Below, one piece after another: positions 1,553-30,989 of a DNA stretch of 37,134 nt. A model generated the notes under the pieces. The model was given only the letters and a program-made list of their open reading frames with translations. It was not told where the DNA came from and searched no databases. The position numbers and the translations under genes are program-made. This DNA is from a virus (taxonomy: Duplodnaviria > Caudoviricetes): positions 1-37,134 of the IMG/VR virus record IMGVR_UViG_3300008007_000037; one strand, written 5' to 3'. Numbering within the stretch: position 1 is the first letter of the stretch; every line of letters starts with the position of its first letter.

Positions 1553-2135
1553 CCAATTCCATATCAATATTTGGAAAAATGGCATCTAAATCAAATGCAC
1601 CAGAGTTATGAGCCATATCAATAATTGGCTTCAATTTCTTAGAAATAACAAACTTAATTTCGTGTGCTTGAAGGTTTTCCCAATCAATTTTTTCGGCATC
1701 TTCTTTATCTAAGCCATAGGCTGAAATCATGTTTTTTAGCGCTGCATTTGCGGCTTTTAAATCATCTTGTTTGAGACTTTTATTAAACACCTTTAGCGCC
1801 ATGTTGTATACAATATGGCGCATCGCCTTTTTGTGAACTTCCTGAGCATCACCATGCAATTGAAGCGAATGCTGCACATCTCGTTGTATAGTCCTAATGC
1901 TTAAGCCAGATGTTGTGCTTATTTCTTTTACTACATCTTCACGAGAAATACCTTCACAAAGCAAACCCCAAATGGTGAGCCATCGCTTTCGTGTTTCAAT
2001 ATCATCCTGGTTTTTCAGCTCTAAACCATGGGTATAATAGGCTTCAATTCTACCATATTGAGTAGATGTATCTATTTCAATTGGCATTATGCTCTGCATT
2101 CCTTTTGGAATAATGCTCAAATCACGATTTTTCAT
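1545..2135 (-). CDS. terS: Probable terminase small subunit (HTH-containing)
   Basis: Immediately upstream of terL, 196 aa, HTH-like GISREDVVKEISTTSGLSIRTIQRD. Confidence 0.6.
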   Translation of the reverse strand: MKNRDLSIIPKGMQSIMPIEIDTSTQYGRIEAYYTHGLELKNQDDIETRKRWLTIWGLLCEGISREDVVKEISTTSGLSIRTIQRDVQHSLQLHGDAQEVHKKAMRHIVYNMALKVFNKSLKQDDLKAANAALKNMISAYGLDKEDAEKIDWENLQAHEIKFVISKKLKPIIDMAHNSGAFDLDAIFPNIDMELDE

Positions 2136-2933
2136 TGTTCTCTCTTCGCTTTAGTTCAGCACGTGCGGCAATAAGCTCTGCATAGTGCATTTCTCTTAAT
2201 TCAGTAGACCTTTGAAGCTTAGCGCTGATGTATTGTCTCTTTTTTTGATCTCTACACTTAGCCAAGTCATTTTCATACTTAGCTCGCTGCTTTTTATGAT
2301 GACTTTCAGATGCTTTTCTGTTTCCTTCAAATCGCTTAAGCTCTAAGTCGCTCATTTTGGTAATATCAACCGAAGATTCAACAGTCGGCACTATTTCGCC
2401 ATGAGTTAGATAGTGATCAATTTTATTCCACAGCCTAGCTTCTTTATCCTTTAAATCGATGATATTAAGCGCCATTTTTTCGCGTGTTTCATCGTCTTTT
2501 AGGTCTACAAATCGCAAATTCCAATTTAGCTTTCGTGCTTCTTTGGCGTAATCAATGATTTTGATATAATAGCTTTTAAGCTCTGCAGGGAGTTTTTCAA
2601 ATTGAACTTTTTGCAGTTTTGGATCTGCATATGCAACCACATCTTGAGGCTGAGCACGCTCAATGGCTGGTGCTTTTTTTTTTCGGCTACAAAAGGAATT
2701 TTTGGCGATTTTATCACCTTTGATTTTGAAACAACAGCCTTTTTATCACTCTGATCACGCTCTATCTTGCTCAACTCAACATGAAGCTTTTTCATCCAGT
2801 TTATTTGACCTTTACCAGCCAAAAAACGCTTTTTAAGCACGTCAATTTTCCCGTATTTTCGGTAAATAGCCACGCCAAGCTCATAATCGCCACCATCAGC
2901 GCGCCAAGCTTGTATTTCTTCTGCTATCGTCAT
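2122..2933 (-). CDS. Hypothetical phage protein split by a -1 frameshift at an A10 run (ORFs 2526..2933 and 2122..2640)
   Basis: Minus strand GAA AAA AAA AAG at 2673-2684; the -1 frame continues APAIERAQPQDVVAYADPK directly into the 2122..2640 ORF. Confidence 0.65.
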
Positions 2934-3733
2934 TTTTCAAACCTTGATTTATCCGGAAAGTACTCTTGCAATGCCTGGCGAAGCTCTGGCGTTAATCCAG
3001 CATCATTGTGATTCATGAATTTGTGATTTTGAAACCAATTTTTAAGCTGATCTACATTATCACTTGGTTTTCCATCAAATGGAATTTCTCTTGGACCATA
3101 AAGTGCTAATTTCACATCATTTCCAGGCTCTAAAAACTCAATATTGGCTGGTCTGTGATGATTGTAATACAGAGAAAACATCAACAGCCTGTTTTTGCCT
3201 GGTGCATAAATCTGAAACACTTCAATCATCTTTTTTCGATCAAAAAACTTCGGTAAATGATTCTCAAAATCAACCCAAGCATCATCTGCGCCTGGTAAGC
3301 ATCGTTTTTTAGCTCGCAAAGCATCAATAGTTCTAAATTTAAGCTTGGTATGCTTTGGAAACTTGCTGCGATCTACCTTATCGATATCTATTGCATTTTT
3401 TGACCTTGGCAAAGCAAAAACACGCTTCAAATCAGCCATTTTTACCTCAGAAGTGAGATAAATATCATCATACGTGTACAATATTTTATTTCCAATGTTT
3501 GGATCTGTAATGGCAGCATTTAATTTTCTAACGGCATCTAAACACACCGGTAAAAAATCATCGTAAATATGCTCTACTGGTAAATGATTTGCATTTTGTA
3601 CCCAATCTGGAATATCACCAGAAAACCACAACTTAAATGGCACTTTCAGATTCTTATCCAAGCTTCTTAGGCTGTATCTTAGTTCATCCCACTTAGCTGG
3701 GCCGTTAAAATATTGGTATACTACATCAATCAT
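2930..3733 (-). CDS. Stealth-family-like sugar-phosphate transferase
   Basis: IDVVY (CR1-like), ELRYSLRSLDKN and YTYDDIY (CR2-like), FMNHND...YFPDKSRFEK (CR4-like). Confidence 0.7.
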   Translation of the reverse strand: MIDVVYQYFNGPAKWDELRYSLRSLDKNLKVPFKLWFSGDIPDWVQNANHLPVEHIYDDFLPVCLDAVRKLNAAITDPNIGNKILYTYDDIYLTSEVKMADLKRVFALPRSKNAIDIDKVDRSKFPKHTKLKFRTIDALRAKKRCLPGADDAWVDFENHLPKFFDRKKMIEVFQIYAPGKNRLLMFSLYYNHHRPANIEFLEPGNDVKLALYGPREIPFDGKPSDNVDQLKNWFQNHKFMNHNDAGLTPELRQALQEYFPDKSRFEK

Positions 3734-4455
3734 ATCGCTTTGATTTTTTCGAGTAATTCATTACTAAAATGCTTCTCAAAAAACACATTAGACCGCACAT
3801 TTACTTCTGTGAAATCGTTGAATTTGTTCATACCAACATCACTTTTCAAATCAAACATCCTAATGTTGCGCTCAAGCATTTTGAAGCTATACACATTATC
3901 GTAATGATCATGGCAATAAGCATTGATCATTTTACTCATGCTGCCGTCAAGTCCTCGCTTTTTGGTGTCGCTCCATAGCTTAAAACCATGCGCTTCTACC
4001 AAATCACGGCTAAGCATACGGCCAGCGCCTACGGTTCTCGATTGTTGAGACTTATAACCACGCCAGTATACAACGCGTGCACTCTTTGCATTAACTACAT
4101 ATAAGTCTTTGATGCCAACAAACTCGGCTTTTTGGCCAGCCATTTCAAAATAAAACTGCAGCATAGCAGCATTAATGAAATCATCACTACCAAGCACCAA
4201 AACATAATCAAAATCTAGGCATTTACTTGCTTCTAGCACTGCATTCCATTTCTTACCCAAAAACTCGTTTGAGCATTCGGTGTAGTGCGCCCAATTTGGC
4301 ACCAGCTTTCGGCTCGAAATGCCTTCGCTACCCACTACGGCCATGCTCAACTCTTGGCCATCTTGCAACTCATTTCTAAGCTGCGTATAGTGGTCCATGA
4401 ATAGCTTGGTTACTTTAGGCCGTTGCCATATAGCTGTAATGATGTGTATCTTCAT
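3730..4455 (-). CDS. GT-A fold glycosyltransferase (family 2-like)
   Basis: N-terminal IHIITAIWQR strand, LGKKWNA helix, YVLVLGSDDF DxD-type motif, GAGRMLSR. Confidence 0.75.
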   Translation of the reverse strand: MKIHIITAIWQRPKVTKLFMDHYTQLRNELQDGQELSMAVVGSEGISSRKLVPNWAHYTECSNEFLGKKWNAVLEASKCLDFDYVLVLGSDDFINAAMLQFYFEMAGQKAEFVGIKDLYVVNAKSARVVYWRGYKSQQSRTVGAGRMLSRDLVEAHGFKLWSDTKKRGLDGSMSKMINAYCHDHYDNVYSFKMLERNIRMFDLKSDVGMNKFNDFTEVNVRSNVFFEKHFSNELLEKIKAI

Positions 4456-4456
4456 T

Positions 4457-4762
4457 TTATCGGGAATGGCGTACGGTTTTCAGTCTGAAAGACAGCTTTA
4501 GTATATCACCGAATTGTTTAATCATTTGCACTCGCCTAGCTTTTGTGCGTTTTCGATTATTCGTTTTAAGCTTTGCGGCTCTTCTTCGCTGACTTCTGTT
4601 TGGATCAAAAATTGGCATGCCTTTATCATCATATGCAATCACACTTCTGGTGATATACATGCCTTTTCGCAAGGTTATTTTTTTACCACCTTGCACATAA
4701 TCAAATGTTGAGGCGTTGATAGATCGGTCTTTTACAATGGGGTAATTCTGTATTTGATACAT
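4457..4762 (-). CDS. Small basic hypothetical protein
   Basis: Arg/Lys-rich ORF; ATG 4762 lies just downstream of the late promoter motif. Confidence 0.55.
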   Translation of the reverse strand: MYQIQNYPIVKDRSINASTFDYVQGGKKITLRKGMYITRSVIAYDDKGMPIFDPNRSQRRRAAKLKTNNRKRTKARRVQMIKQFGDILKLSFRLKTVRHSR

Positions 4763-4781
4763 CTTGTAGGTATTTATTATC

Positions 4782-4817
4782 CAAAGATTAGCACCATACA
4801 ACTTTGCGAAAAGGACA
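4782..4817 (-). promoter_or_regulatory. Putative late promoter 1 (TGTCC-N27-TTTG)
   Basis: TGTCCTTTTCGC...AATCTTTG; same spacing as four other copies. Confidence 0.8.
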
Positions 4818-4818
4818 C

Positions 4819-4849
4819 AAAAAAAGGGCTACACATTGTGCAGCCCTTT
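4819..4849 (-). terminator. Rho-independent terminator after the tail-tube candidate
   Basis: AAAGGGCT...AGCCCTTT stem followed by a T7 run on the minus strand. Confidence 0.8.
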
Positions 4850-4890
4850 CACCCCAATTAATTCACACGTACCTACGCGATGAATAATCT

Positions 4891-5493
4891 TTATGCAGTT
4901 GTGCTTGAGCTAGTGCTCAAACTTGCAGCATCATCCAATGGATCATAACCCAGCACAATTGGTGCTGGTGATGTGCTAGGATAAGAACACTCAAAACTGA
5001 TTTGCTTACGCTCGGCAGTTGTTGCACCTGTTGTTGGTGTGATGTTGTCAAAATTCACAGGTAAGTTTTCACTACCCAATTGTCTCAACGTGCCATCACT
5101 TTCAGGAACCAATAAAATCATTGGTGTGTTGTTTGCATATCTAGCAAAACCTAATGCTCTACGCTTGTTTCCTGGATGAACAAAACTAAACTTGTTCAAG
5201 AAACTTTTGCCATCCACTTCGCCTTGTGGCTCACAAACTACACCGCTGGTGTCTCTTGTGATATACATCTTATTCCAACCCTTTCCAGTTTTGAAATTAT
5301 ATCCAATGCCATCTTGTGCGCAGTCAATTACTGCAGCATCATCAAGACTTGCTGGGCTTTCAGGAACGTTTGGAATACCATTTTTGGCAAACGAACTGCG
5401 CGGAGCATAATAGAAATAGGCAGCCATGCCACCCATATTTTCAGAGCCATCTGGCCAAGCAATATCTAATATCGCGGTACTTTCTAAACTCAC
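4891..5493 (-). CDS. Putative major tail (tube) protein
   Basis: Follows MCP, about 200 aa, beta-rich; start reassigned to GTG 5493 because the upstream ATG lies within a terminator hairpin; function by position. Confidence 0.55.
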   Translation of the reverse strand: MSLESTAILDIAWPDGSENMGGMAAYFYYAPRSSFAKNGIPNVPESPASLDDAAVIDCAQDGIGYNFKTGKGWNKMYITRDTSGVVCEPQGEVDGKSFLNKFSFVHPGNKRRALGFARYANNTPMILLVPESDGTLRQLGSENLPVNFDNITPTTGATTAERKQISFECSYPSTSPAPIVLGYDPLDDAASLSTSSSTTA

Positions 5494-5517
5494 GGCTATT
5501 GTTTTTTTTTGATTGAT

Positions 5518-5547
5518 AAAAGGCTGAGCCATATTGCAGGCTCAGCC
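5518..5547 (-). terminator. Terminator/attenuator after the major capsid gene
   Basis: GGCTGAGCC-N8-GGCTCAGCC perfect 9-bp stem then TTTT on the minus strand. Confidence 0.8.
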
Positions 5548-5572
5548 GTTAATTTCTATCAGATCACACTCA

Positions 5573-6580
5573 CTACACTAAGGTAGTTGAGTTAGATCCT
5601 GAGTACGACCAATCTGGTCTGTACATGTAAATCAGCTCTGGTCTGATTACACCAATTGCTTCCCACCAATCAGTGTAGATGCTTACATTTCTTTTAGCAC
5701 CTTCTACCATTGGCATTGGTATTGCATTTTGTCTGGTAGCATGTACCAGGTTACCTTTTACAGTCGCAATTACAATTCCTGTACCAGCCAAACACTGCAA
5801 TGGCTTGATCTCCCATCCAGCACCATCACCATAGATATCAGAGAAATCTATGATAGGTGTTACTGAATAATCAATATTTGAACCAAGCGTGTTTCGCTTA
5901 TCCTTGAGCATTTTTCGCACCAATTTTGGATCGCTAAAAAACTCAACCATTTCACCTTCAAATTCAACTGGTAAATCCTCAGCCATTTCTTCGTAAGCAT
6001 CAAATGCTTCTGCAAGTATCGCTGGGTTTTTGTCAATCAAAAACTGATGACCACCTGCATTTACTGCATCGGTTGCTACTTTCACCAATCCATCCATGGC
6101 ATTAATAGCCTTTCCTGGAGTTCCTTCCGTAGGAGCTACATACTGACCATATCGGTAACTCTTAAGCTCACGATCATGATGGCTTTGTGCAATCAACTGA
6201 CGCATCATATGCGCAACGTATGGTGCTTTGGTTCTGTCCTGCTCTGTTACAGGGCCATTCAAGTACTCCAAATAGCTTTGTTTGAAAGCATCTGGTTTAC
6301 CTTCCCAGTCAATCTTCAAGTTATACAGCTCAAGCAATTTTGGTGTATAAGTTGCAGTTGTTTTTGACGTGTAAGTGCCTTGAAAAGACTGCACTACTTC
6401 GTCTAAATGTTCATTTACAAGACGAACCGTGTCGCCTTGTGCAAAATATGGAGTAAGTTGAGCCATACTGCGAGGTTTTACTCGCATTTGGGTCATTAAT
6501 GTTTCCGCATTATTTTGATTCCCCAAATAATACGAACCATATTCAGCTTTTACTGATGAAACGTCTATTACGCTTGCCAT
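5573..6580 (-). CDS. Major capsid protein
   Basis: 335 aa directly after the protease/scaffold gene, followed by a terminator; AMDGLVK motif reminiscent of HK97-fold MCPs. Confidence 0.75.
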   Translation of the reverse strand: MASVIDVSSVKAEYGSYYLGNQNNAETLMTQMRVKPRSMAQLTPYFAQGDTVRLVNEHLDEVVQSFQGTYTSKTTATYTPKLLELYNLKIDWEGKPDAFKQSYLEYLNGPVTEQDRTKAPYVAHMMRQLIAQSHHDRELKSYRYGQYVAPTEGTPGKAINAMDGLVKVATDAVNAGGHQFLIDKNPAILAEAFDAYEEMAEDLPVEFEGEMVEFFSDPKLVRKMLKDKRNTLGSNIDYSVTPIIDFSDIYGDGAGWEIKPLQCLAGTGIVIATVKGNLVHATRQNAIPMPMVEGAKRNVSIYTDWWEAIGVIRPELIYMYRPDWSYSGSNSTTLV

Positions 6581-6609
6581 TTTCTGTAATTATTTAATGG
6601 TTGTTGTGA

Positions 6610-12171: not shown

Positions 12172-12963
12172 CTAAATAGGCAAATGCACATTACTCAAAT
12201 GAGCTTTTGAAATATGCGTATAAATCATGGTAGTTTCTATGCGTGAATGACCGAGCATATTGGCTAATGTAGGTAAATCAACGCCACTTTCTATAAGCGT
12301 AGTAGCAAAGCTGTGTCTTAACTGATGAAAATGCACGTTTGATCCGATATATCGCTTTACAATTTTATTGCAACTCATAGGTGAATATTGCTCAGAAAAT
12401 TGACCTTTAAAAAGATAAATCGTTGGTCTGTATTGTTTGTAGTATTCACGCAAAACAAGCAACACGTTTTCGCTCAAAGGCAGATTGCGATCTTTAAACC
12501 CTTTGCTGCACTTAATGGTTATTTCCATTCGATCACTATCTATATCAGTCAGCTTCAAATTACAAACTTCACTTACTCTCAATCCCACAGAATTACCAAG
12601 CATCATAATAGCTTTATGCTTTAAATTATCACATCGATCAATACCATCAAGAATCACTTTTTTAGCAATAGCTTTTGGTAGTTTCTTATGCTTTCTAGGT
12701 CTGTAAAAAATGACTTTATTATACTTTTTACCCAATACAGATTGGTAAAAAAACTTCAATGCATTCACCACTTGGTTTTGGTGCGACTGCGATTTATACT
12801 GATAGTTTTCAATGTATTTCTGAAACTCGTCAGCGCTTACTCTGTTTGCAGGTTTATCTAATTGATGCAAATATTGATTTATAAAATGCAGATATATCTT
12901 TTGCGTGTTTTTGGCGTAACCAAGCAGCCGCATTTTCTGCTCTGAACTTTGGTAAAAATCCAT
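12172..12963 (-). CDS. Tyrosine recombinase (XerD/integron-integrase-like, about 263 aa) adjacent to the cassette array
   Basis: GLRVSEV (R), SKGFKDR (K), HQLRHSFAT (HxxR), LGHSRIETTMIYTH (H, Y); SAM-like N-terminal domain; start taken at ATG 12963. Confidence 0.93.
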   Translation of the reverse strand: MDFYQSSEQKMRLLGYAKNTQKIYLHFINQYLHQLDKPANRVSADEFQKYIENYQYKSQSHQNQVVNALKFFYQSVLGKKYNKVIFYRPRKHKKLPKAIAKKVILDGIDRCDNLKHKAIMMLGNSVGLRVSEVCNLKLTDIDSDRMEITIKCSKGFKDRNLPLSENVLLVLREYYKQYRPTIYLFKGQFSEQYSPMSCNKIVKRYIGSNVHFHQLRHSFATTLIESGVDLPTLANMLGHSRIETTMIYTHISKAHLSNVHLPI

Positions 12964-13012
12964 AGTGTAGGTATTGTATTTATTGGGGTGTTGTTTATTT
13001 TGACGGTTGTAG
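12964..13012 (+). other. attI-like primary recombination site (G|TT at 13006-13008)
   Basis: First cassette starts with GTTGTAGG here with no preceding hairpin arm, directly upstream of the recombinase start. Confidence 0.6.
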
Positions 13013-13024
13013 GTAATAAGCCTA

Positions 13025-13201
13025 CTAACATTCTGCATAAGTCCAAGTTTCCATATTTTCACCTTGTGCTTTTCCTTTCCAAGAAAACCTGTCGAATCCT
13101 TTGTGTCTTACACTTATCCATTTATGCATCCAATCACCGTTATCACGTTGATAATTCTGTCCTATCAATTTTCTGTTTTTATCAAAAATATTCTGTCTCA
13201 T
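13025..13201 (-). CDS. Cassette 1 hypothetical protein (58 aa, not in ORF track)
   Basis: MRQNIFDKNRKLIGQNYQRDNGDWMHKWISVRHKGFDRFSWKGKAQGENMETWTYAEC*; fills the cassette body. Confidence 0.7.
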   Translation of the reverse strand: MRQNIFDKNRKLIGQNYQRDNGDWMHKWISVRHKGFDRFSWKGKAQGENMETWTYAEC

Positions 13202-13241
13202 AAGTCAAGTTTTTGAGTTTAAAATCCGTAGGCTTACATAC

Positions 13242-13367
13242 CTACAACAATAAATATGAAGTAATAAGGCAAGTCCGTTGACTCGGACGATTTTTGTATA
13301 AGCAGTTATCAACTGCGGTATCTCATTTATTTTATTTGCCTTACTACTCATATTATTAACGTTGTGG
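13242..13367 (+). repeat. attC-like site 1
   Basis: AAC 13246; arms AATATGAAGTAATAAGGCAA / TTGCCTTACTACTCATATT; GTT 13361. Confidence 0.85.
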
Positions 13368-13376
13368 TGCATTTGC

Positions 13377-13598
13377 CTACGCACCTCTTAAAATAGCCTT
13401 TCTGTTTTCAATATCTACTTCAAATTCAATTCCACAGTCACATTTACAAGGTGAGTGCCTGTTTACATTTGCCATTACATCATCAGGGCAATTTTCAAGT
13501 GTATATACTTCTAAAAAGCAATCACCACTTTTGCTTTGAAATTCCCTTTCTTCCCCACAATTAGGGCAGTTTACCATTACAGAATCATACATTCCCAT
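13377..13598 (-). CDS. Cassette 2 protein, Zn-ribbon-like
   Basis: MGMYD...CPNCG...FQSKSGDC...CDCG. Confidence 0.8.
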   Translation of the reverse strand: MGMYDSVMVNCPNCGEEREFQSKSGDCFLEVYTLENCPDDVMANVNRHSPCKCDCGIEFEVDIENRKAILRGA

Positions 13599-13612
13599 CG
13601 CTCAAAAACGCA

Positions 13613-13743
13613 CCACAACAATGTATAACAGCAATAGCGGTTGCGGTGCTTAATTTTAGCACTATTGCTTTCAATTAATATATGTTTTAACTCAATCATT
13701 CGTGCTTCTTAATCCGCTACTGCGGTTATACTCTCCGTTGTGC
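13613..13743 (+). repeat. attC-like site 2
   Basis: AAC 13617; arms GTATAACAGCAATAGCGG / CCGCTACTGCGGTTATAC; GTT 13737. Confidence 0.85.
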
Positions 13744-13758
13744 TTCATTAAAACGAAA

Positions 13759-14206
13759 GCACAACATGCAATATAAAACATGCTTATTGCTGTGCTTCGT
13801 TTCAACGTCTGTGCTATTAGGAAGGGAAATAATAATGCCTTCCCACGCTCAACTACTTCTTAATTTCAGGCCAGTTCCATTGTCCAGCTTCTTCACCTTT
13901 CAATGCACTTGTAACCCAAAAACTACCCTCACCATCATTTTGCACATTTAAGTTGATAGCTGCTTCTTCAGTATCTCCCCAAACTGCCACTACAATAGCG
14001 GGTAGTTTTTCTTGAACATTGCAGTTTGACGCATCTTCCATACGCTTCTGCTCTTCTTTTGTGGTGTTATAAATAACCACTCTTCCAATTGTTGGTAACA
14101 TAATAAATATGGGTTTTACAAAGCCCGCCCAAGGCATTATTATTTTTGTTCTTCGTAGCAAGGTCAGTGCTATATTCCGCACGTTTCATATTGCTGTACG
14201 TTGGCA
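13759..14206 (+). repeat. attC-like site 3, expanded (gene inside loop)
   Basis: AAC 13763; arms GCAATATAAAACATGC (13768) / GCACGTTTCATATTGC (14179); GTT 14200. Confidence 0.8.
13853..14101 (-). CDS. Hypothetical protein (82 aa) nested in attC3
   Basis: MLPTIGRVVIY...LPAIVVAVW...WNWPEIKK; start reassigned to ATG 14101. Confidence 0.8.
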   Translation of the reverse strand: MLPTIGRVVIYNTTKEEQKRMEDASNCNVQEKLPAIVVAVWGDTEEAAINLNVQNDGEGSFWVTSALKGEEAGQWNWPEIKK

Positions 14207-14210
14207 GCAA

Positions 14211-14483
14211 TTAGAACAACTTACCAAACAACTTTCTGATTTCGGGCTTATGAGTAACGTCATTACCATAATCTGATACGTTATTGACGAATTCCGCTAT
14301 ATTTTCCTTATCAATAGTTCCAGTCGATTCGACTATTGCGAAATGTCCTTGAATGGCCTGATCTTCCCATTCCCAAGCTATATAAGCCCGAAATTGTCCA
14401 TTTTCAGGAAGCAATACAATACCCCCAATTGCTTTACCTTTTACTCTTGAGTAATCTTTTGATTTTGTTTTGACTGAATTCAT
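14211..14483 (-). CDS. Cassette 4 hypothetical protein
   Basis: ORF bounded by IR GTTGGCAGCAATTA / TAACTGCTGCCAAC. Confidence 0.8.
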   Translation of the reverse strand: MNSVKTKSKDYSRVKGKAIGGIVLLPENGQFRAYIAWEWEDQAIQGHFAIVESTGTIDKENIAEFVNNVSDYGNDVTHKPEIRKLFGKLF

Positions 14484-14502
14484 TTTCGATTGAATTAACT
14501 GC

Positions 14503-14632
14503 TGCCAACAATTGCTATAAAAACATAGGGCAGTCAGTGGTTATACAAAGTGTAGGGGTCTTTATTGTCGTCCGTGCTTATCGGACAGTTTCGGCTATCT
14601 ATGCCCTACGTTTCATAGCATAGCCGTTATAG
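14503..14632 (+). repeat. attC-like site 4
   Basis: AAC 14507; arms GCTATAAAAACATAGGGC / GCCCTACGTTTCATAGC; GTT 14626. Confidence 0.85.
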
Positions 14633-14638
14633 GTAAGG

Positions 14639-14836
14639 CTAAAAATGCTTCGGACACCATTCCCAATTTTCCTCACGAAATTGTTTAACAGGAATAGTAA
14701 CAACCGTGCATCCAACAGCGATATATTCACCATACTCTCGTTTCTCTTTTAATGTTGGTTTGTCATTTGGTTGCCCAGCCAATTTATATTTGTTTCCTTC
14801 ACACGGACATTTAAAAATTCTTACAGGTTGTTCCAT
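14639..14836 (-). CDS. Cassette 5 small Cys-containing protein
   Basis: ORF bounded by IR GTTATAGGTAAGGCT / AGCCCTACCTATAAC. Confidence 0.78.
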   Translation of the reverse strand: MEQPVRIFKCPCEGNKYKLAGQPNDKPTLKEKREYGEYIAVGCTVVTIPVKQFREENWEWCPKHF

Positions 14837-14863
14837 TTTATTTAAGTTTGTGAGAAGCCCTAC

Positions 14864-14996
14864 CTATAACAGCACATAGGCAATATGGCGGGGTTCTCGG
14901 TTAATATTAAGTTTAGTTTTTCAAATCAAGTTTAGTGCTTATAGATAGTTTTCGTTTCCAAAATCCGCCACATCGCCTATCTGCAAAACGTTATAG
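14864..14996 (+). repeat. attC-like site 5
   Basis: AAC 14868; arms GCACATAGGCAATATGGCGG / CCGCCACATCGCCTATCTGC; GTT 14990. Confidence 0.85.
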
Positions 14997-15001
14997 GGCA
15001 T

Positions 15002-15325
15002 TTACTGCAACCTTAAAGACCTAAACCAATTCAATAATCTATTTTTATTACCAAGAGAGTATCCCCATTTTCCAGTAATCAAAAAGGTTAGTGGCAGTCC
15101 TACAATCATTAATAGCATTGTGAGTAACGCAAATGGCAGAGTTAACCTTATCCAAAAACTTACAGGCTCTTTTTCTTCGTAGTAAAAATCCATCCTCAAT
15201 TCAATCAACCTATCTACCATTTCCTCGCTACTAAGTTTTGAAAGTTCAGGAAAAACCTTTTTGAATCTCGGCATATAATTAGCATATCCGTTTGACCAAG
15301 TACGTTTTAGTTTTCTATACATCAT
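15002..15325 (-). CDS. Cassette 6 membrane protein
   Basis: Hydrophobic LTLPFALLTMLLMIVGLPLTFLITG; bounded by IR GTTATAGGGCATTT / AAACGCCCTATAAC. Confidence 0.8.
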   Translation of the reverse strand: MMYRKLKRTWSNGYANYMPRFKKVFPELSKLSSEEMVDRLIELRMDFYYEEKEPVSFWIRLTLPFALLTMLLMIVGLPLTFLITGKWGYSLGNKNRLLNWFRSLRLQ

Positions 15326-15337
15326 AATAAAAACGCC

Positions 15338-15467
15338 CTATAACAAAGTGTATAGCAAATAGCCGTTATTGGGCTGTAATTAAACTATTTGCGTGTTTAT
15401 AAATTAGTTTCTTATCTCAATGGTCTGTGCATTTTATCGGCTACTTGCCATACACAAAACGCTATAA
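15338..15467 (+). repeat. attC-like site 6 (right end reads GCT, fused to attC7 arm)
   Basis: AAC 15342; arms GTGTATAGCAAATAGCCG / CGGCTACTTGCCATACAC. Confidence 0.8.
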
Positions 15468-15924
15468 GTAATGCGGGTGTCGTAGCTCGTATGAAGGTTT
15501 GTGCTATGCTTCTTTTTTTGCCAACGCACTGTAATCAATATCATCAATAAAATCGTCAACTTCACACATCATTAATTCAGCGTATTTCTGATTAATGGCT
15601 TTTGATGTTTCAGATTCGCTTTTTGATGATAATTCATAAATCAGTTCTTTCAACGCTTTTATTTGTGATGATTGCCATTCAACCATACATAGAGGACAGC
15701 TTTGAGATTCCCCATTTACATCTGTCCACATATACTCATATATGGTCTTGTTTCCGCATTCACAACTTGTGTGGTTGTCTTTGTCCTTTAGGTGTTTTGA
15801 AGTTATAGTTTCCATTTTATATTTAGTTTATGCCCACGCTCAAAAAAGAAGCGGGAGCGGTTAATACTCGTATCAAGGTCAGTTCTGTAATGCCCGCACT
15901 ACCCATAGCTGTGTTACGTTATGC
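15461..15924 (+). repeat. attC-like site 7, expanded (gene inside loop)
   Basis: Arms GCTATAAGTAATGCGGG (15461) / CCCGCACTACCCATAGC (15893); GTT 15918. Confidence 0.75.
15504..15815 (-). CDS. Zn-finger-like hypothetical protein nested in attC7
   Basis: CECG...CPLC followed by coiled coil. Confidence 0.8.
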   Translation of the reverse strand: METITSKHLKDKDNHTSCECGNKTIYEYMWTDVNGESQSCPLCMVEWQSSQIKALKELIYELSSKSESETSKAINQKYAELMMCEVDDFIDDIDYSALAKKEA

Positions 15925-16116
15925 GCAATTAAGTTCCGATAACTTTACCGTTAACCAATATGGCACATCATACTCTTCATCATTTCTTACATATTCTCCT
16001 TCTTCATCCCAGTCCCAAAATGGATTAGCTATATTGCAAGTCCCATCTTCAAATATTGTTTCTATATGTGTTTGTTTCCCTGCATATTCAACTGTTTGAC
16101 CTTCTTCGTATTTCAT
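15919..16116 (-). CDS. Cassette 8 small acidic protein (65 aa)
   Basis: MKYEEGQTVEY...; start reassigned to 16116; stop overlaps the GTTA core. Confidence 0.78.
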   Translation of the reverse strand: MKYEEGQTVEYAGKQTHIETIFEDGTCNIANPFWDWDEEGEYVRNDEEYDVPYWLTVKLSELNCA

Positions 16117-16134
16117 AATATTTTTAATAAAAGC

Positions 16135-16227
16135 GCATAACCCACGGTATAAACAAACCGCCAATTAGCCTTATTTGTACTATTGAACTGTCTTATAGGC
16201 GGTCAGTTCATACCGCTCTTGTTACCG
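16135..16227 (+). repeat. attC-like site 8
   Basis: AAC 16139; arms CGGTATAAACAAACCGCC / GGCGGTCAGTTCATACCG; GTT 16221. Confidence 0.82.
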
Positions 16228-16295
16228 TGCATTGCTATAAAATTAATTAGTAGCAATCTTTGAACGTCACAGCCTTAAAGAAGGAAGCAACGACA

Positions 16296-16610
16296 CGGTA
16301 ACATTTTGTATAAATAATAATTAAAAACCGAACGGGCTACCATCTTTGAAAATATCGCCAAAAATGGAGCTAAACGGATTTTCTTCCGTACACTTATATA
16401 CTATTAATTTACCAAAATCAGGGTATTTCTTTTTCAAATAATCCTCGAATTTCACCTGAGCTTCTACACTGCTATATTTGTTTTTAGCTCGCATAGTTCC
16501 GCTTTTCAAAACCGCACCATTTTTAGCTTGTGCGGTATATTTAATTAAGTAGTTCTTTTGTTGCATTTTATCATGTTTTTAATTACTATTCATACAATTT
16601 ACCGTTATCT
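16296..16610 (+). repeat. attC-like site 9, expanded (gene inside loop)
   Basis: AAC 16300; arms TTGTATAAATAATAATTAAAAAC / GTTTTTAATTACTATTCATACAA; GTT 16604. Confidence 0.8.
16321..16566 (-). CDS. Hypothetical protein nested in attC9
   Basis: 81 aa ORF; its stop codon lies in the left arm of the hairpin. Confidence 0.78.
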   Translation of the reverse strand: MQQKNYLIKYTAQAKNGAVLKSGTMRAKNKYSSVEAQVKFEDYLKKKYPDFGKLIVYKCTEENPFSSIFGDIFKDGSPFGF

Positions 16611-16805
16611 TCAAGTTTTCCCTCCACCGCGCTCTAAGGGCAACCGTACTATCCGATACTTTTCGTTTTCAAATTCTTTTTGCTTTTTTTTAGAAAAGAC
16701 GTGTTCCAGTTGATTTGCTGTCAACTCGGTAGCTTCCAAAATAGGAGATCGCGAACCAAATATTCGCGCTTCCCCTGTCTGTTTGTTTAAGAACCAGTAT
16801 GGCAT
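16611..16805 (-). CDS. Cassette 10 small protein, possibly DNA-binding
   Basis: 64 aa basic, helix-turn-helix-like middle. Confidence 0.65.
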   Translation of the reverse strand: MPYWFLNKQTGEARIFGSRSPILEATELTANQLEHVFSKKKQKEFENEKYRIVRLPLERGGGKT

Positions 16806-16811
16806 AACTGT

Positions 16812-17057
16812 TTAATTTACGGTATATTGATCAATTTGCTGCCAGTCAAATTCAGGATAAACCTTTTTGTTTTCCCTCGCTGTTACCGTTACGCTGACAT
16901 TGTTTTGCTTTGCTATTTGAATGTACTGGTCTATAAAATTTGATGACTTTTCAACGTCATTACTTGTAATGGAGCAGGAGCTTCCTATTCCTTCCAATGG
17001 CTTTGAGTAGTTGAACTCAATTCTAAATTTGTTTTTTGGGCTTCTTAATTTTGACAT
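16812..17057 (-). CDS. Cassette 10 hypothetical protein
   Basis: 81 aa ORF in a tight operon. Confidence 0.7.
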   Translation of the reverse strand: MSKLRSPKNKFRIEFNYSKPLEGIGSSCSITSNDVEKSSNFIDQYIQIAKQNNVSVTVTARENKKVYPEFDWQQIDQYTVN

Positions 17058-17065
17058 GGTATTGA

Positions 17066-17383
17066 TTATTTAGTGTTAGACATCATTCTTACTTTATCAG
17101 CTCCGAAGTAAGCAACTGCTTTAGCGTGGTTGCTTTCAGAGTAAGGCTTTGTGTAGGTTGTTCCGATTTCGCAATCAAAAGTTCCCAATCTACTTTGAGC
17201 TTCTTGAAGGTTACCCATCAAATCCATTCTTTTCAGTCCTTCGCTGATTGTGATTTTTCTAAAGTTGTTCATCAAATCAACCATGAAGTCTTTTAAGCTC
17301 ACGTTGTAAAACCCTTTGATTTTGCTGTTGTAGTAGTTTACTACTTCTTCTCTGTTGGCTTTTAAAAATTCTTGAGTTGTCAT
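17066..17383 (-). CDS. Cassette 10 hypothetical protein
   Basis: Start at ATG 17383 (MTTQEFL) downstream of a TATATTTG promoter box. Confidence 0.75.
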   Translation of the reverse strand: MTTQEFLKANREEVVNYYNSKIKGFYNVSLKDFMVDLMNNFRKITISEGLKRMDLMGNLQEAQSRLGTFDCEIGTTYTKPYSESNHAKAVAYFGADKVRMMSNTK

Positions 17384-17413
17384 TTCGTTGTCTTTTTGTT
17401 TGTTTCTATACCC

Positions 17414-17446
17414 CAAATATACAACCTATTTTGGAACTACCAAAGA
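17414..17446 (-). promoter_or_regulatory. Host-type (Bacteroidota sigma-A) promoter within cassette 10
   Basis: -7 box TATATTTG at 17421-17414 with TTTG about 20 nt upstream. Confidence 0.7.
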
Positions 17447-17507
17447 AAAAAGCAAAATATTTCAAATAATTTGTGTTTTCGTAAAGCCAACGCGCGGAAA
17501 AACCAGA

Positions 17508-17571
17508 AGATAACAGCACCTAAATCGCCATGCCCTGTGGGACACAGGCGTTTAGCTGCATCACGTTCTCT
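17508..17571 (+). repeat. attC-like site 10 (short, about 60 bp)
   Basis: AAC 17512; arms GCACCTAAATCGCC / GGCGTTTAGCTGC; GTT 17565. Confidence 0.8.
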
Positions 17572-17602: not shown

Positions 17603-17839
17603 TTATCCCTCCGAATCTTTTTCTTTTCTTTCCTCCCCCGCACTCAAAAACGAAATAGCTTTTTCAGCTACTTGCTTTTGATTTTCAATTACAGGTAGCA
17701 ACTTAGCTTTTGATGCTTCTGTCATTCGCTGATCCCCGTTCAGCATCATGTTAAGGAAGCGGATGTTGATACCCGCTTCCTTGCAAATTCCTGACTTGTT
17801 GATACCAGGCTGATCGAAAAATTCTTGGACCTCTTTCAT
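17603..17839 (-). CDS. HTH DNA-binding protein
   Basis: INKSGICKEAGINIRFLNMMLNG XRE-like HTH. Confidence 0.72.
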   Translation of the reverse strand: MKEVQEFFDQPGINKSGICKEAGINIRFLNMMLNGDQRMTEASKAKLLPVIENQKQVAEKAISFLSAGEERKEKDSEG

Positions 17840-17879: not shown

Positions 17880-18068
17880 CTAAATAGCGTGTTTATCTAT
17901 TTCGGCTGCATAGTATTGTTTCACTTTTATTCCGAGCTTCTGCAATGCTAATTGTCCGCAACTCATACCGTCAAACCGCGATAACACGGTAATTCCTTCG
18001 GCTTCTGAAAAGCCGTTTTTGCCACCGCTTGAATTGATAATTATAATGTCGTATTCGTGCAAATTCAT
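17880..18068 (-). pseudogene. Chimeric remnant: PAPS-reductase-like N-terminus fused to a C5 DNA methyltransferase motif I fragment
   Basis: YDIIIINSSGGK then ITVLSRFDGMSCGQLAL...YYAAEIDKHAI*. Confidence 0.7.
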
Positions 18069-18150: not shown

Positions 18151-18457
18151 TGTCGGATGAACATTGTGCTAAAATACACTTAAACAATTGATTTACATAT
18201 ACTTTAACATTAAAAACCAGCCGACAAAATCCGACATGTACAAACTTAAACAATTGTTTAACAGTGTTTTGCGCTTGTCGCGTTCCGACAAATTTTGTCG
18301 GAAATTTCCGACAAAATTTGTCGGATTTGTCGGACGTTAATTTACTGATTTTCAATTTAATTGATGTTAATTTGTCGGATTTTGTCGGCTGCATTTCGTT
18401 GTTTTTTGTAGGTTTTACGGGCTTTTCAGGCGTTTTTATGCGTTTTTCAATCCGACA
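18151..18457. repeat. Cluster of 11 CCGACA/TGTCGG hexamers; candidate replication origin
   Basis: Copies at 18151, 18221, 18231, 18285, 18296, 18308, 18319, 18328, 18373, 18383, 18452 in AT-rich DNA next to the replication gene. Confidence 0.75.
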
Positions 18458-22898: not shown

Positions 22899-23255
22899 AT
22901 GAAATCACATCTTATTACCACCCTCATGGCAGCTATGCTATTAATCGGATGCAGCAAACAAAACACCCAACGCGGCAGCGCTATTTATCTTGTAAAAAGC
23001 AACAAGTCTGGCATTAACGTTACCAACTTTTACCCAGGCTCTGCAAGCCAAACAACTTTTGTAGAAAGCACTTCACTCACTACCGAGTTTAAAGCTAAAA
23101 GCGAAGATCTGCTTTACGTAAGTGTGCAAAGCATACATGAAGATGCATGTGTTACCGCTTGGCTTATATTCAAAGGCGACACCGTTACCAAATCTCGCGT
23201 TTGTGGTAACTATCCTAGCGCCACAGCCATCTATGAAATTCCTTTTGAAGATTAA
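22899..23255 (+). CDS. Lipoprotein (accessory; possible superinfection exclusion)
   Basis: Signal peptide II with lipobox LLIG-C. Confidence 0.75.
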   Translation: MKSHLITTLMAAMLLIGCSKQNTQRGSAIYLVKSNKSGINVTNFYPGSASQTTFVESTSLTTEFKAKSEDLLYVSVQSIHEDACVTAWLIFKGDTVTKSRVCGNYPSATAIYEIPFED

Positions 23256-29842: not shown

Positions 29843-29892
29843 CGTAAAAATGTTAAATTTCAGTGTTTTTTGAATATTTTTCGTCTAAATAC

Positions 29893-29924
29893 TTGGACGG
29901 TATATGGTTTTTGTCTTATATTTG
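29893..29924 (+). promoter_or_regulatory. Host-type promoter of the plus-strand moron
   Basis: TTG at 29893 and TATATTTG at 29917-29924. Confidence 0.68.
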
Positions 29925-29973
29925 TTCTATAAGAAAAACACAAAGAAATACTAACAACAAAAACTTAGCAGTT

Positions 29974-30633
29974 ATGAAAACAATCAAATTAAACCAAATC
30001 GAAACCAAAGAAGACGAAGCGGTAATCTACGCAGCGATGGCCTACCGTTCGGAAAACACCGCTGATCCTATAACATCAGAACTGAGCTATCACTTAACAT
30101 TTGAAGCCGCTGAAGCTGCAGCAAAAGAGATTAATCTTGAAGTAGGATTTTCAGCCATTACCGAGCATTGCATTTTTGACTTAGAAGAAGTTACAGAGCT
30201 TTTTGAAAGTAAAGAAGAAATCGAACTAAGCGACTTAACAGAGTTGTATCACGAAAAAGATAATACGATAGAAGTAGCAACAAATGAAGGAACATCGGTA
30301 GTTGGCGATGTTATTATTAGCTGGAATTACGAAAAATATGTAGGATATGCTCGCAATTTTTCGCAAATAGGATATGGCGGTCAGTGGCCATTCAACGACT
30401 TTAAATATGAAAGCGACTTGATCACTGGTAACGAAGAGTCAAATTTTAGAACTAATTACTCTGTTTTGTTAACTGCTGACGAGCTTAGCGGCTTAACGGA
30501 TCAAGAAATTCTTGACGCTTGTAAATAAGCCTTGTATTCTGGCGATTGGAAGTGGAATCACTTCAAAAACAGACCAACGGAAGAAAAAATAATTGATGGT
30601 TTAAGCTTGACTATAACAGAAATTGAACTTTAA
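29974..30633 (+). CDS. Acidic hypothetical protein, probably interrupted by in-frame TAA at 30526
   Basis: MKTIKLNQ start; frame stays open for 34 codons after the stop (ALYSGDWKWNHFK...EIEL*). Confidence 0.65.
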
Positions 30634-30672
30634 AATCTCGCTAGTTTCTCGCTAAGTTCTAGCGAGGATGCG

Positions 30673-30701
30673 CCCCGATGGCCTTACGGCATCGGGGTTT
30701 T
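30673..30701 (+). terminator. Terminator-like hairpin between moron genes
   Basis: CCCCGATG-GCCTTACGG-CATCGGGG followed by a T run. Confidence 0.7.
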
Positions 30702-30722
30702 GCGCTGAAAAAAATATATGAT

Positions 30723-30989
30723 ATGGATCAATACTCAGAAATAGCACTGAAAAAAATAGGCGAAGGCGTGAAAATAATGATAAAAGCACGCAAAATACCT
30801 ATCGAACACCTGGCAGCACAAAGTGGAATTTCAAAACAAGTAATCTATAACATAATTAATGGGAAAGATTATCAAATCAGTTCGCTCATTAAAATATTCA
30901 GAATATTAAAAGTGCACATTGATTTTTCATTAATGGATTCGAAAAACAATATTATTGCTCAAAGCGGTGACAATATTTCGATGAATTAA
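30723..30989 (+). CDS. XRE-family HTH protein
   Basis: IEHLAAQSGISKQVIYNIINGKDYQISSLIKI; start reassigned to MDQYSE. Confidence 0.8.
   Translation: MDQYSEIALKKIGEGVKIMIKARKIPIEHLAAQSGISKQVIYNIINGKDYQISSLIKIFRILKVHIDFSLMDSKNNIIAQSGDNISMN

Follow-up and report, generated by a model that had tools for sequence, protein, structure and literature searches.

Classical integrons, such as class 1 integrons and the Vibrio system with VchIntIA and VCR, are built from an integrase (IntI), an attI site at the 5' end of the recombinase, a promoter (Pc) and GTT-bounded cassettes, each with a downstream attC hairpin whose bottom strand is richer in G·T pairs and more stable (PMC5027507; articles cited by PMC accession are cited for the sections available). 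Here, we analyzed a similar array at positions 13006-17571 of a tailed-phage sequence, IMG/VR virus record IMGVR_UViG_3300008007_000037; the window is the entire record (37,134 bp), and its plus and minus strands correspond to the top and bottom strands of the sites, respectively. Like an integron, the array has an attI-like site at the 5' end of an adjacent recombinase gene, and GTT-bounded cassettes with hairpins. It differs in that the genes lie on the bottom strand and point toward the recombinase, the enzyme has some 48 aa fewer over the region of the IntI insertion, the central spacer is 2-4 nt longer on the right, and the loops can hold whole genes. Given an enzyme without the IntI insertion and a reversed gene orientation, the array is an integron-like platform with reversed cargo, not a member of the integrons. 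We regard it as rather probable that it is a phage gene-capture array which works in an integron-like way, carries its cargo on the reversed strand, and is probably read by transcription that enters at the distal end and heads for the array's own recombinase.

Other described systems share single aspects of this layout. Qi et al. (2023; PMC9892861) reported phage-borne attC clusters, both integrons and clusters of attC sites lacking integron integrases (CALINs). One of their sites, P12002L_attC1 (30005-30059 in NC_028924), belongs to the site family studied here and received the same bottom-strand call; it is also the site that IntI1 failed to recombine. The sections available of that article do not describe gene inversion as a systematic feature or a short recombinase that belongs to the sites, and contain neither 'Bacteroid' nor 'Flavobacter'; moreover, the window array does not fit the CALIN definition, since a recombinase and an attI-like site adjoin it. 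Their second site, P12002L_attC2, was missed by our detector and not used as support. ORF-less cassettes (ORF, open reading frame) with antisense promoters (PMC8876359) likewise show that a cassette promoter can face the integrase, but they are occasional members of a canonical array and do not set the direction of all cargo. XerA, XerC and XerD (PDB 4a8e, 1a0p) resemble the phage enzyme in domain layout and length and provide its best structural-sequence match (E 2.7e-36), but the phage enzyme falls below the curated Xer cut-offs and goes together with a cassette array and its attI-like site. No published description of this layout was found in the literature searched, in which subscription journals were thinly covered.

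Because the hairpins are near-palindromic, their polarity had to be tested separately. We surveyed the loci of the best 80 of at least 542 phage matches and the best 80 of at least 581 genome matches to an alignment of the recombinase (the scans covered 51 of 64 phage and 9 of 64 genome database parts). Three polarity features co-occur in both sets: the right spacer is longer by 2-4 nt; the motifs AACA and CGTT are found in 193 and 191 of 197 phage hairpins and in 56 and 57 of 57 chromosomal ones; and G·T wobbles fall on the bottom strand (360 vs 24 in phages, 121 vs 21 in chromosomes). The detector accepted either spacer asymmetry, and two of the three features were not required by it. Their co-occurrence is the integron pattern, judging from PMC5027507 and from aadA7, whose top strand likewise reads YAACA...CGTTR (oligonucleotides in the supplement of PMC9892861). 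The bottom strand is also the better-folding one in 342 of 361 hairpins from phages and in 77 of 99 from chromosomes. Gene strands were then counted for distinct cassette bodies, restricted to those that were 120-1500 bp long, lay between adjacent sites and had 7 or more complementary end bases. Phage cassettes carry their gene on the bottom strand in 216 of 221 cases (1 top, 4 without a gene), and this holds in all 47 loci; chromosomal cassettes carry it on the top strand in 42 of 48 cases (1 bottom, 4 without a gene, 1 unclear), consistently in 17 of 17 loci. In the window, none of the 12 cargo genes is on the top strand. Since the chromosomal set calibrates the site family, the phage cargo is truly inverted, and cargo inversion is real and general in phages of this family. 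The initial annotation had proposed this inversion and had suggested comparing phage-borne with chromosomal arrays; the comparison bears it out. An opposite site polarity, under which the orientation would be canonical, was ruled out by the polarity features, the gene strands, and the shared cassettes and strain junctions described below.

The position of the array is equally regular. Arrays in phages always lie upstream of the recombinase with their top strand opposite to it (55 of 55 arrays, from the 55 of 80 loci with at least two sites), and an array is present in 44 of 45 phage loci with 3 kb of upstream sequence. Among 79 chromosomal loci, arrays lie downstream of the recombinase in 16 and upstream in four. 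The former layout resembles the inverted-integrase integrons of Treponema (PMC4889954), in which recombinase and cargo are likewise co-oriented; there, however, the integrase is flipped and the top-strand genes lie downstream, whereas phages have flipped genes, upstream of the recombinase. That study, as far as the sections available describe it, leaves out recombinases that lack the IntI domain. Both chromosomal layouts have top-strand genes and a similar TATA-rich entry site. In two further phages, P12002L (30005-40952) and hattifnatt9-1 (2124-6595), sites of the same family lie among minus-strand early genes with their top strand on the plus strand; several of them enclose genes, and no integrase is annotated in the stretches covered.

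Coding potential was scored with a codon model trained on long ORFs of related phage loci. Exactly 12 minus-strand ORFs in the array score as coding (5.8-24.5), and all 18 plus-strand array ORFs of at least 35 aa score below zero. Plus-strand coding of the cargo was thereby ruled out, and the earlier statement that all 12 ORFs of the array lie on the minus strand and point toward the recombinase was upheld.

The unit that moves could be delimited by comparing cassettes. Among 297 cassettes, 21 pairs share a body, of which 14 also share both hairpins, six the right one only, none the left one only, and one neither. Cassette 6 of the window has a 92.6% copy in another locus (L204), extending from the same GTT through the right-hand hairpin, and the gene-in-loop cassette 3 recurs with GTT borders and other neighbours in four further loci (L210-L213). 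The most telling evidence comes from cultured Polaribacter phages, among which we compared strains Freya_1, 2, 5, 6, 8 and 9 with Freya_10 around the integrase (L217-L229); Freya_3, 4 and 7, whose record lengths equal those of Freya_2, 2 and 6, were outside the comparison. Relative to Freya_10, Freya_1, 2, 5 and 9 lack 4942, 4100, 3198 and 307 bp, respectively, from the attI-like GTT to a right-hand GTT, and Freya_8 lacks 902 bp from hairpin to hairpin; relative to Freya_5, Freya_6 has an additional 472-bp gene-in-loop unit at attI. The changes are thus exact GTT-to-GTT gains or losses in six strains, five of them at the attI-like site, and their sizes equal the differences in record length exactly. 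The junctions share just a few bases, and all but one of the annotated genes in the Freya arrays are on the bottom strand. The isolation paper gives a genome range of 44.0-48.9 kb and, in the sections available, does not use the word integron (PMC8776804). The mobile unit therefore spans the stretch between successive GTTs, the right-hand hairpin included; read along the coding strand, a hairpin thus comes before its gene or surrounds it. Gain and loss of units take place at the attI-like site, some 30-52 bp ahead of the start of the recombinase. A crossover on the opposite side, which would have restored a canonical orientation, is at odds with a unit that is cut at the right-hand GTT.

The recombinase gene (12172-12963, minus strand) encodes 263 aa from an ATG, with SAM_4 and catalytic domains. 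Its residues 174-207 span what VchIntIA (2a3v) covers with residues 180-261 (33 vs 81 residues). The protein scores 143.6 bits against the IntI model TIGR02249 (cut-off 265) and is also below the cut-offs of the XerA, XerC and XerD models (169.5/220, 133.1/329.6 and 130.2/335.15 bits, respectively). It does not qualify as an integron integrase. Phage enzymes cluster as one clade (72 of 72, support 0.95, together with two short genome-bin contigs), with the Freya and Ingeline enzymes as sisters (Freya support 0.96); the clade is inflated by the choice of loci as the 80 best matches to the query. Before the first GTT, 47 phage loci have in common the attI consensus ATATATAATA, and in 37 of 45 loci this site lies 32-52 bp from the recombinase ATG. 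In the window, the attI-like entry site is at 12995-13008 (plus strand), with its GTT at 13006, 43 bp before the recombinase ATG. One attI flank was found with several different first cassettes (L046-L049). A locus search with the single protein returned only distant Xer-like genes, which later served as a control set: the strict site detector found no site in 42 loci of such genes and none in five shuffled windows, and it recovered 4 of the 10 window sites. From these associations, we infer that the adjacent short recombinase performs the cassette exchange.

The initial annotation had further proposed expression from the distal end instead of a Pc beside attI, which would reverse the usual expression gradient and co-express the integrase with its cargo during infection. 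We consider transcription from the distal end toward the recombinase likely, as the genes point toward the recombinase and cargo and enzyme would thus be read from that end. Support for it is indirect: in 29 of 36 phages the genes on the far side of the array are directed toward it, genes after the recombinase are co-directed in 44 of 49, and the Bacteroidota -7 element TAnnTTTG (consensus from PMC6847099) was found between attI and the recombinase start in none of 45 phage loci. A promoter-like site of the Bacteroidota type (TTTG, 19 nt, TAnnTTTG) lies in cassette 10 at 17414-17444 on the minus strand, facing the array and the recombinase. It is the sole full match on this strand in 37 kb, which is no more than chance (0.76 expected by shuffling); its -7 element is kept ahead of the homologous pair of genes in L271, a phage that has no hairpins at that place. 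Across 44 arrays, full promoter motifs face the recombinase in 16 cases and away from it in seven, a weak bias. A scan for sigma-70 promoters and terminators remained at chance level, and the bottom strand of hairpins carries no excess of promoter motifs (31 vs 45 of 367). The recombinase on its own could be served by another -7-like motif, at 13190.

Several observations weigh against the reading of an actively exchanging, distally transcribed array. The majority of the distal genes are directed away from the array in 7 of 36 phages; counted by array, full motifs face the recombinase in just 11 of 44 and away from it in six; and a -7 motif facing into the array occurs in 4 of 47 phage and 5 of 19 chromosomal loci. 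As such a Pc-like motif is rare in both sets, the motif test is no proof that chromosomes have a Pc which phages lack, and with the weak motif bias this makes distal transcription likely at most. Just one of the six right-only pairs is phage to phage, and the enzyme lacks an insertion held necessary for integron chemistry. The exact cut within the GTT and the strand that is cut are not readable from sequence. The window copy of the array may be idle, because its attI departs from the phage consensus ATATATAATA-GTT and no cassette-skipping joint was seen in eight sequencing runs, although contigs drop rare variants. A single joint that links 15059 to 16677 through an insert of 24 other letters was discounted, as it is not at a site.

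If the array works as we suppose, the adjacent recombinase would cut the better-folding bottom strand at the right-hand core. The inversion would be kept since it places cargo and recombinase on the one coding strand of the phage, and this co-orientation is the simplest reading of why the cargo is inverted. Transcription would start from upstream or cassette-borne promoters (here possibly 17444-17414), the A-rich bottom-strand loops may act as leaders or start sites, and the newest cassette would be the last cargo gene on the transcript, with the recombinase after it. A broader reading, which we put forward tentatively, is that Bacteroidota phages possess an integron-type platform of their own: an insertion-less recombinase would act on folded single-strand hairpins and, being last on the array transcript, be tuned by array length, so that cassette loss raises and cassette gain lowers the enzyme, while the loops would be gene cradles and start sites.

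Among the alternatives, selection by replication fares best, although we consider it unlikely. Here, genes on the bottom strand that are co-oriented with the fork would put the recombinogenic strand on the lagging template and increase shuffling; excision is indeed higher with the bottom strand as lagging template (PMC5371416). Just past the helicase gene, at 18151-18457, eleven CCGACA/TGTCGG repeats, some of them within perfect palindromes, are likely to mark a candidate replication origin adjoining the array, and the four-fold GC skew of minus-strand genes differs across them (+0.018 to the left, -0.128 to the right). The origin is itself a candidate, however, and no replication-strand bias was found by GC skew: ten chromosomal arrays divide five to five as to whether the top strand looks leading, and the pooled phage skew is nearly equal between strands (-0.017 vs -0.055).

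It appears less probable still that the inversion was frozen by accident in a single phage ancestor. Genes would then land on the bottom strand, often in a loop, and be expressed cassette by cassette without an array-wide gradient. The single enzyme clade fits this, and so do the bottom-strand ORFs inside 9 of 10 phage hairpins longer than 225 nt and the 61 of 206 called genes that begin within a hairpin; against it, the clade is partly a product of how the loci were chosen, and the bottom strands of hairpins show no enrichment of promoter motifs. Finally, we give very little probability to the recombinase being a common integrase of prophage or Xer type, with the cassettes shifted by an enzyme of the host or through recombination at short homologies: its best matches are XerA-like, similar hairpins occur on deeper contigs of the same samples, and P12002L has sites with no integrase annotated, but the attI-to-ATG spacing is fixed, arrays accompany 44 of 45 loci and none of the 42 distant Xer-like genes, the Freya junctions share few bases, and IntI1 did not recombine the one tested site of this family.

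In the window, nine cassette bodies alternate with ten attC-like hairpins on the plus strand, opening with a body and closing with a hairpin. The bodies have complementary GTT.../...AAC ends of 9-10 nt. The initial annotation had read the sites as YAACA...CGTTR on the plus strand: six hairpins match exactly, no. 8 has TAACC...TGTTA, no. 10 ends in CGTTC, and hairpin 6 is joined directly to hairpin 7 at 15460, so that nine of the ten have a left core and one is fused. As regards extrahelical bases near the L'' box, the arms are mostly gap-free in alignment, with one extra base in hairpin 10 (the survey detector assumes ungapped arms). The minus strand folds more stably in eight of the nine hairpins folded, no. 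4 preferring the plus strand by 0.2 kcal/mol; the two long hairpins were folded as ends only.

Cassette 1 (13006-13367) has its body at 13006-13248, hairpin at 13242-13367 and ORF at 13025-13201; all ORFs listed here are on the minus strand. Cassette 2 (13361-13743) comprises body 13361-13619, hairpin 13613-13743 and ORF 13377-13598. Cassette 3 (13737-14206) has an empty body of 29 bp (13737-13765) and a 448-nt hairpin with ORF 13853-14101 (phrog_2293) in its loop. Cassette 4 (14200-14632; body 14200-14509, hairpin 14503-14632, ORF 14211-14483) and cassette 5 (14626-14996; body 14626-14870, hairpin 14864-14996, ORF 14639-14836) follow, the hairpin of the latter being 90% like one in Flavobacterium phage hattifnatt9-1. 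Cassette 6 (14990-15460) has body 14990-15344, a hairpin from 15338 and ORF 15002-15325 (phrog_36118). The remnant of cassette 7 (15460-15924) lacks its body and left core and retains hairpin arms around ORF 15504-15815; the fusion at 15460 could reflect an off-target crossover or slippage between similar 12-mers, and the matching junction in the locus with the copy of cassette 6 (L204) has an intact GTT. Cassette 8 (15918-16227) comprises body 15918-16141, hairpin 16135-16227 and ORF 15919-16116 (or from a TTG at 16164). Cassette 9 (16221-16610), like cassette 3, has an empty body (82 bp, 16221-16302), and a 315-nt hairpin with ORF 16321-16566 in its loop. Cassette 10 (16604-17571) carries three genes (16611-16805, 16812-17057 and 17066-17383) in body 16604-17514, and its terminal hairpin (17508-17571) ends the array with a GTT that has no complementary partner in the window. 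The three genes within loops, the two empty bodies and the triple cargo of the last cassette had escaped the initial annotation. Hairpins nearly identical to 14864-14996 and 17499-17559 were found on other contigs of the same samples whose depth is 3-7 times higher, with other sequence after the GTT; these are possibly the arrays of the host.

Loops are A-rich on the bottom strand (43% T on the top strand), which suits translation starts in Bacteroidota. In hairpins of 190-215 nt from L043-L122, many loops appear to hold an A-rich leader and an ATG on the bottom strand, as if filled by tiny genes. Cargo proteins have no match in Pfam, weak and uniformly sub-threshold matches in NCBIfam and PADLOC, and PHROGs matches to families of unknown function only; one is absent from the 401 genomes of the phylum searched. 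In L206, L209 and L271, cargo genes are present as normal phage genes that have no hairpins. At gathering score, Rfam gave no match in the array and, in five related loci, just a tRNA and one DUF805b match.

The window as a whole is that of a phage: almost every long ORF is on the minus strand, and there are matches to a head protease, tape measure, lysin and helicase. Its sequence occurs in aquifer and groundwater sequencing runs, with no RNA run among those listed, and relatives of the recombinase and hairpins point to a likely Bacteroidota host. An assembly artefact as the source of the array was ruled out, as the stretch is covered by contigs of four runs, with long pieces showing no differences; two of these runs may underlie the window record itself. 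The few plus-strand genes (22899-23255 and 29863-30989, including a Cro/C1-type HTH (helix-turn-helix) gene at 30678-30989) are possibly a regulatory or accessory island. Directly outside the distal array end, 17627-17652 is a 26-nt direct repeat (73%) of the cassette 2 leader (13585-13610), and a 62-aa fragment resembling a DNA methyltransferase (17880-18068; phrog_116, E 2.6e-5) lies between the array and the origin-like repeats.

Two rules of integrons, gene orientation and the integrase insertion, are broken together in these phages, and arrays of the same family in their hosts keep the usual orientation. Such arrays would escape tools that demand the IntI domain. Because both the Freya phages and the Polaribacter they infect are cultured, the enzyme, the recombined strand and the order of expression are directly testable. 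The findings suggest a dedicated, enzyme-driven turnover of small accessory genes in phages, and they bear on the origin of integron chemistry from Xer-like enzymes.

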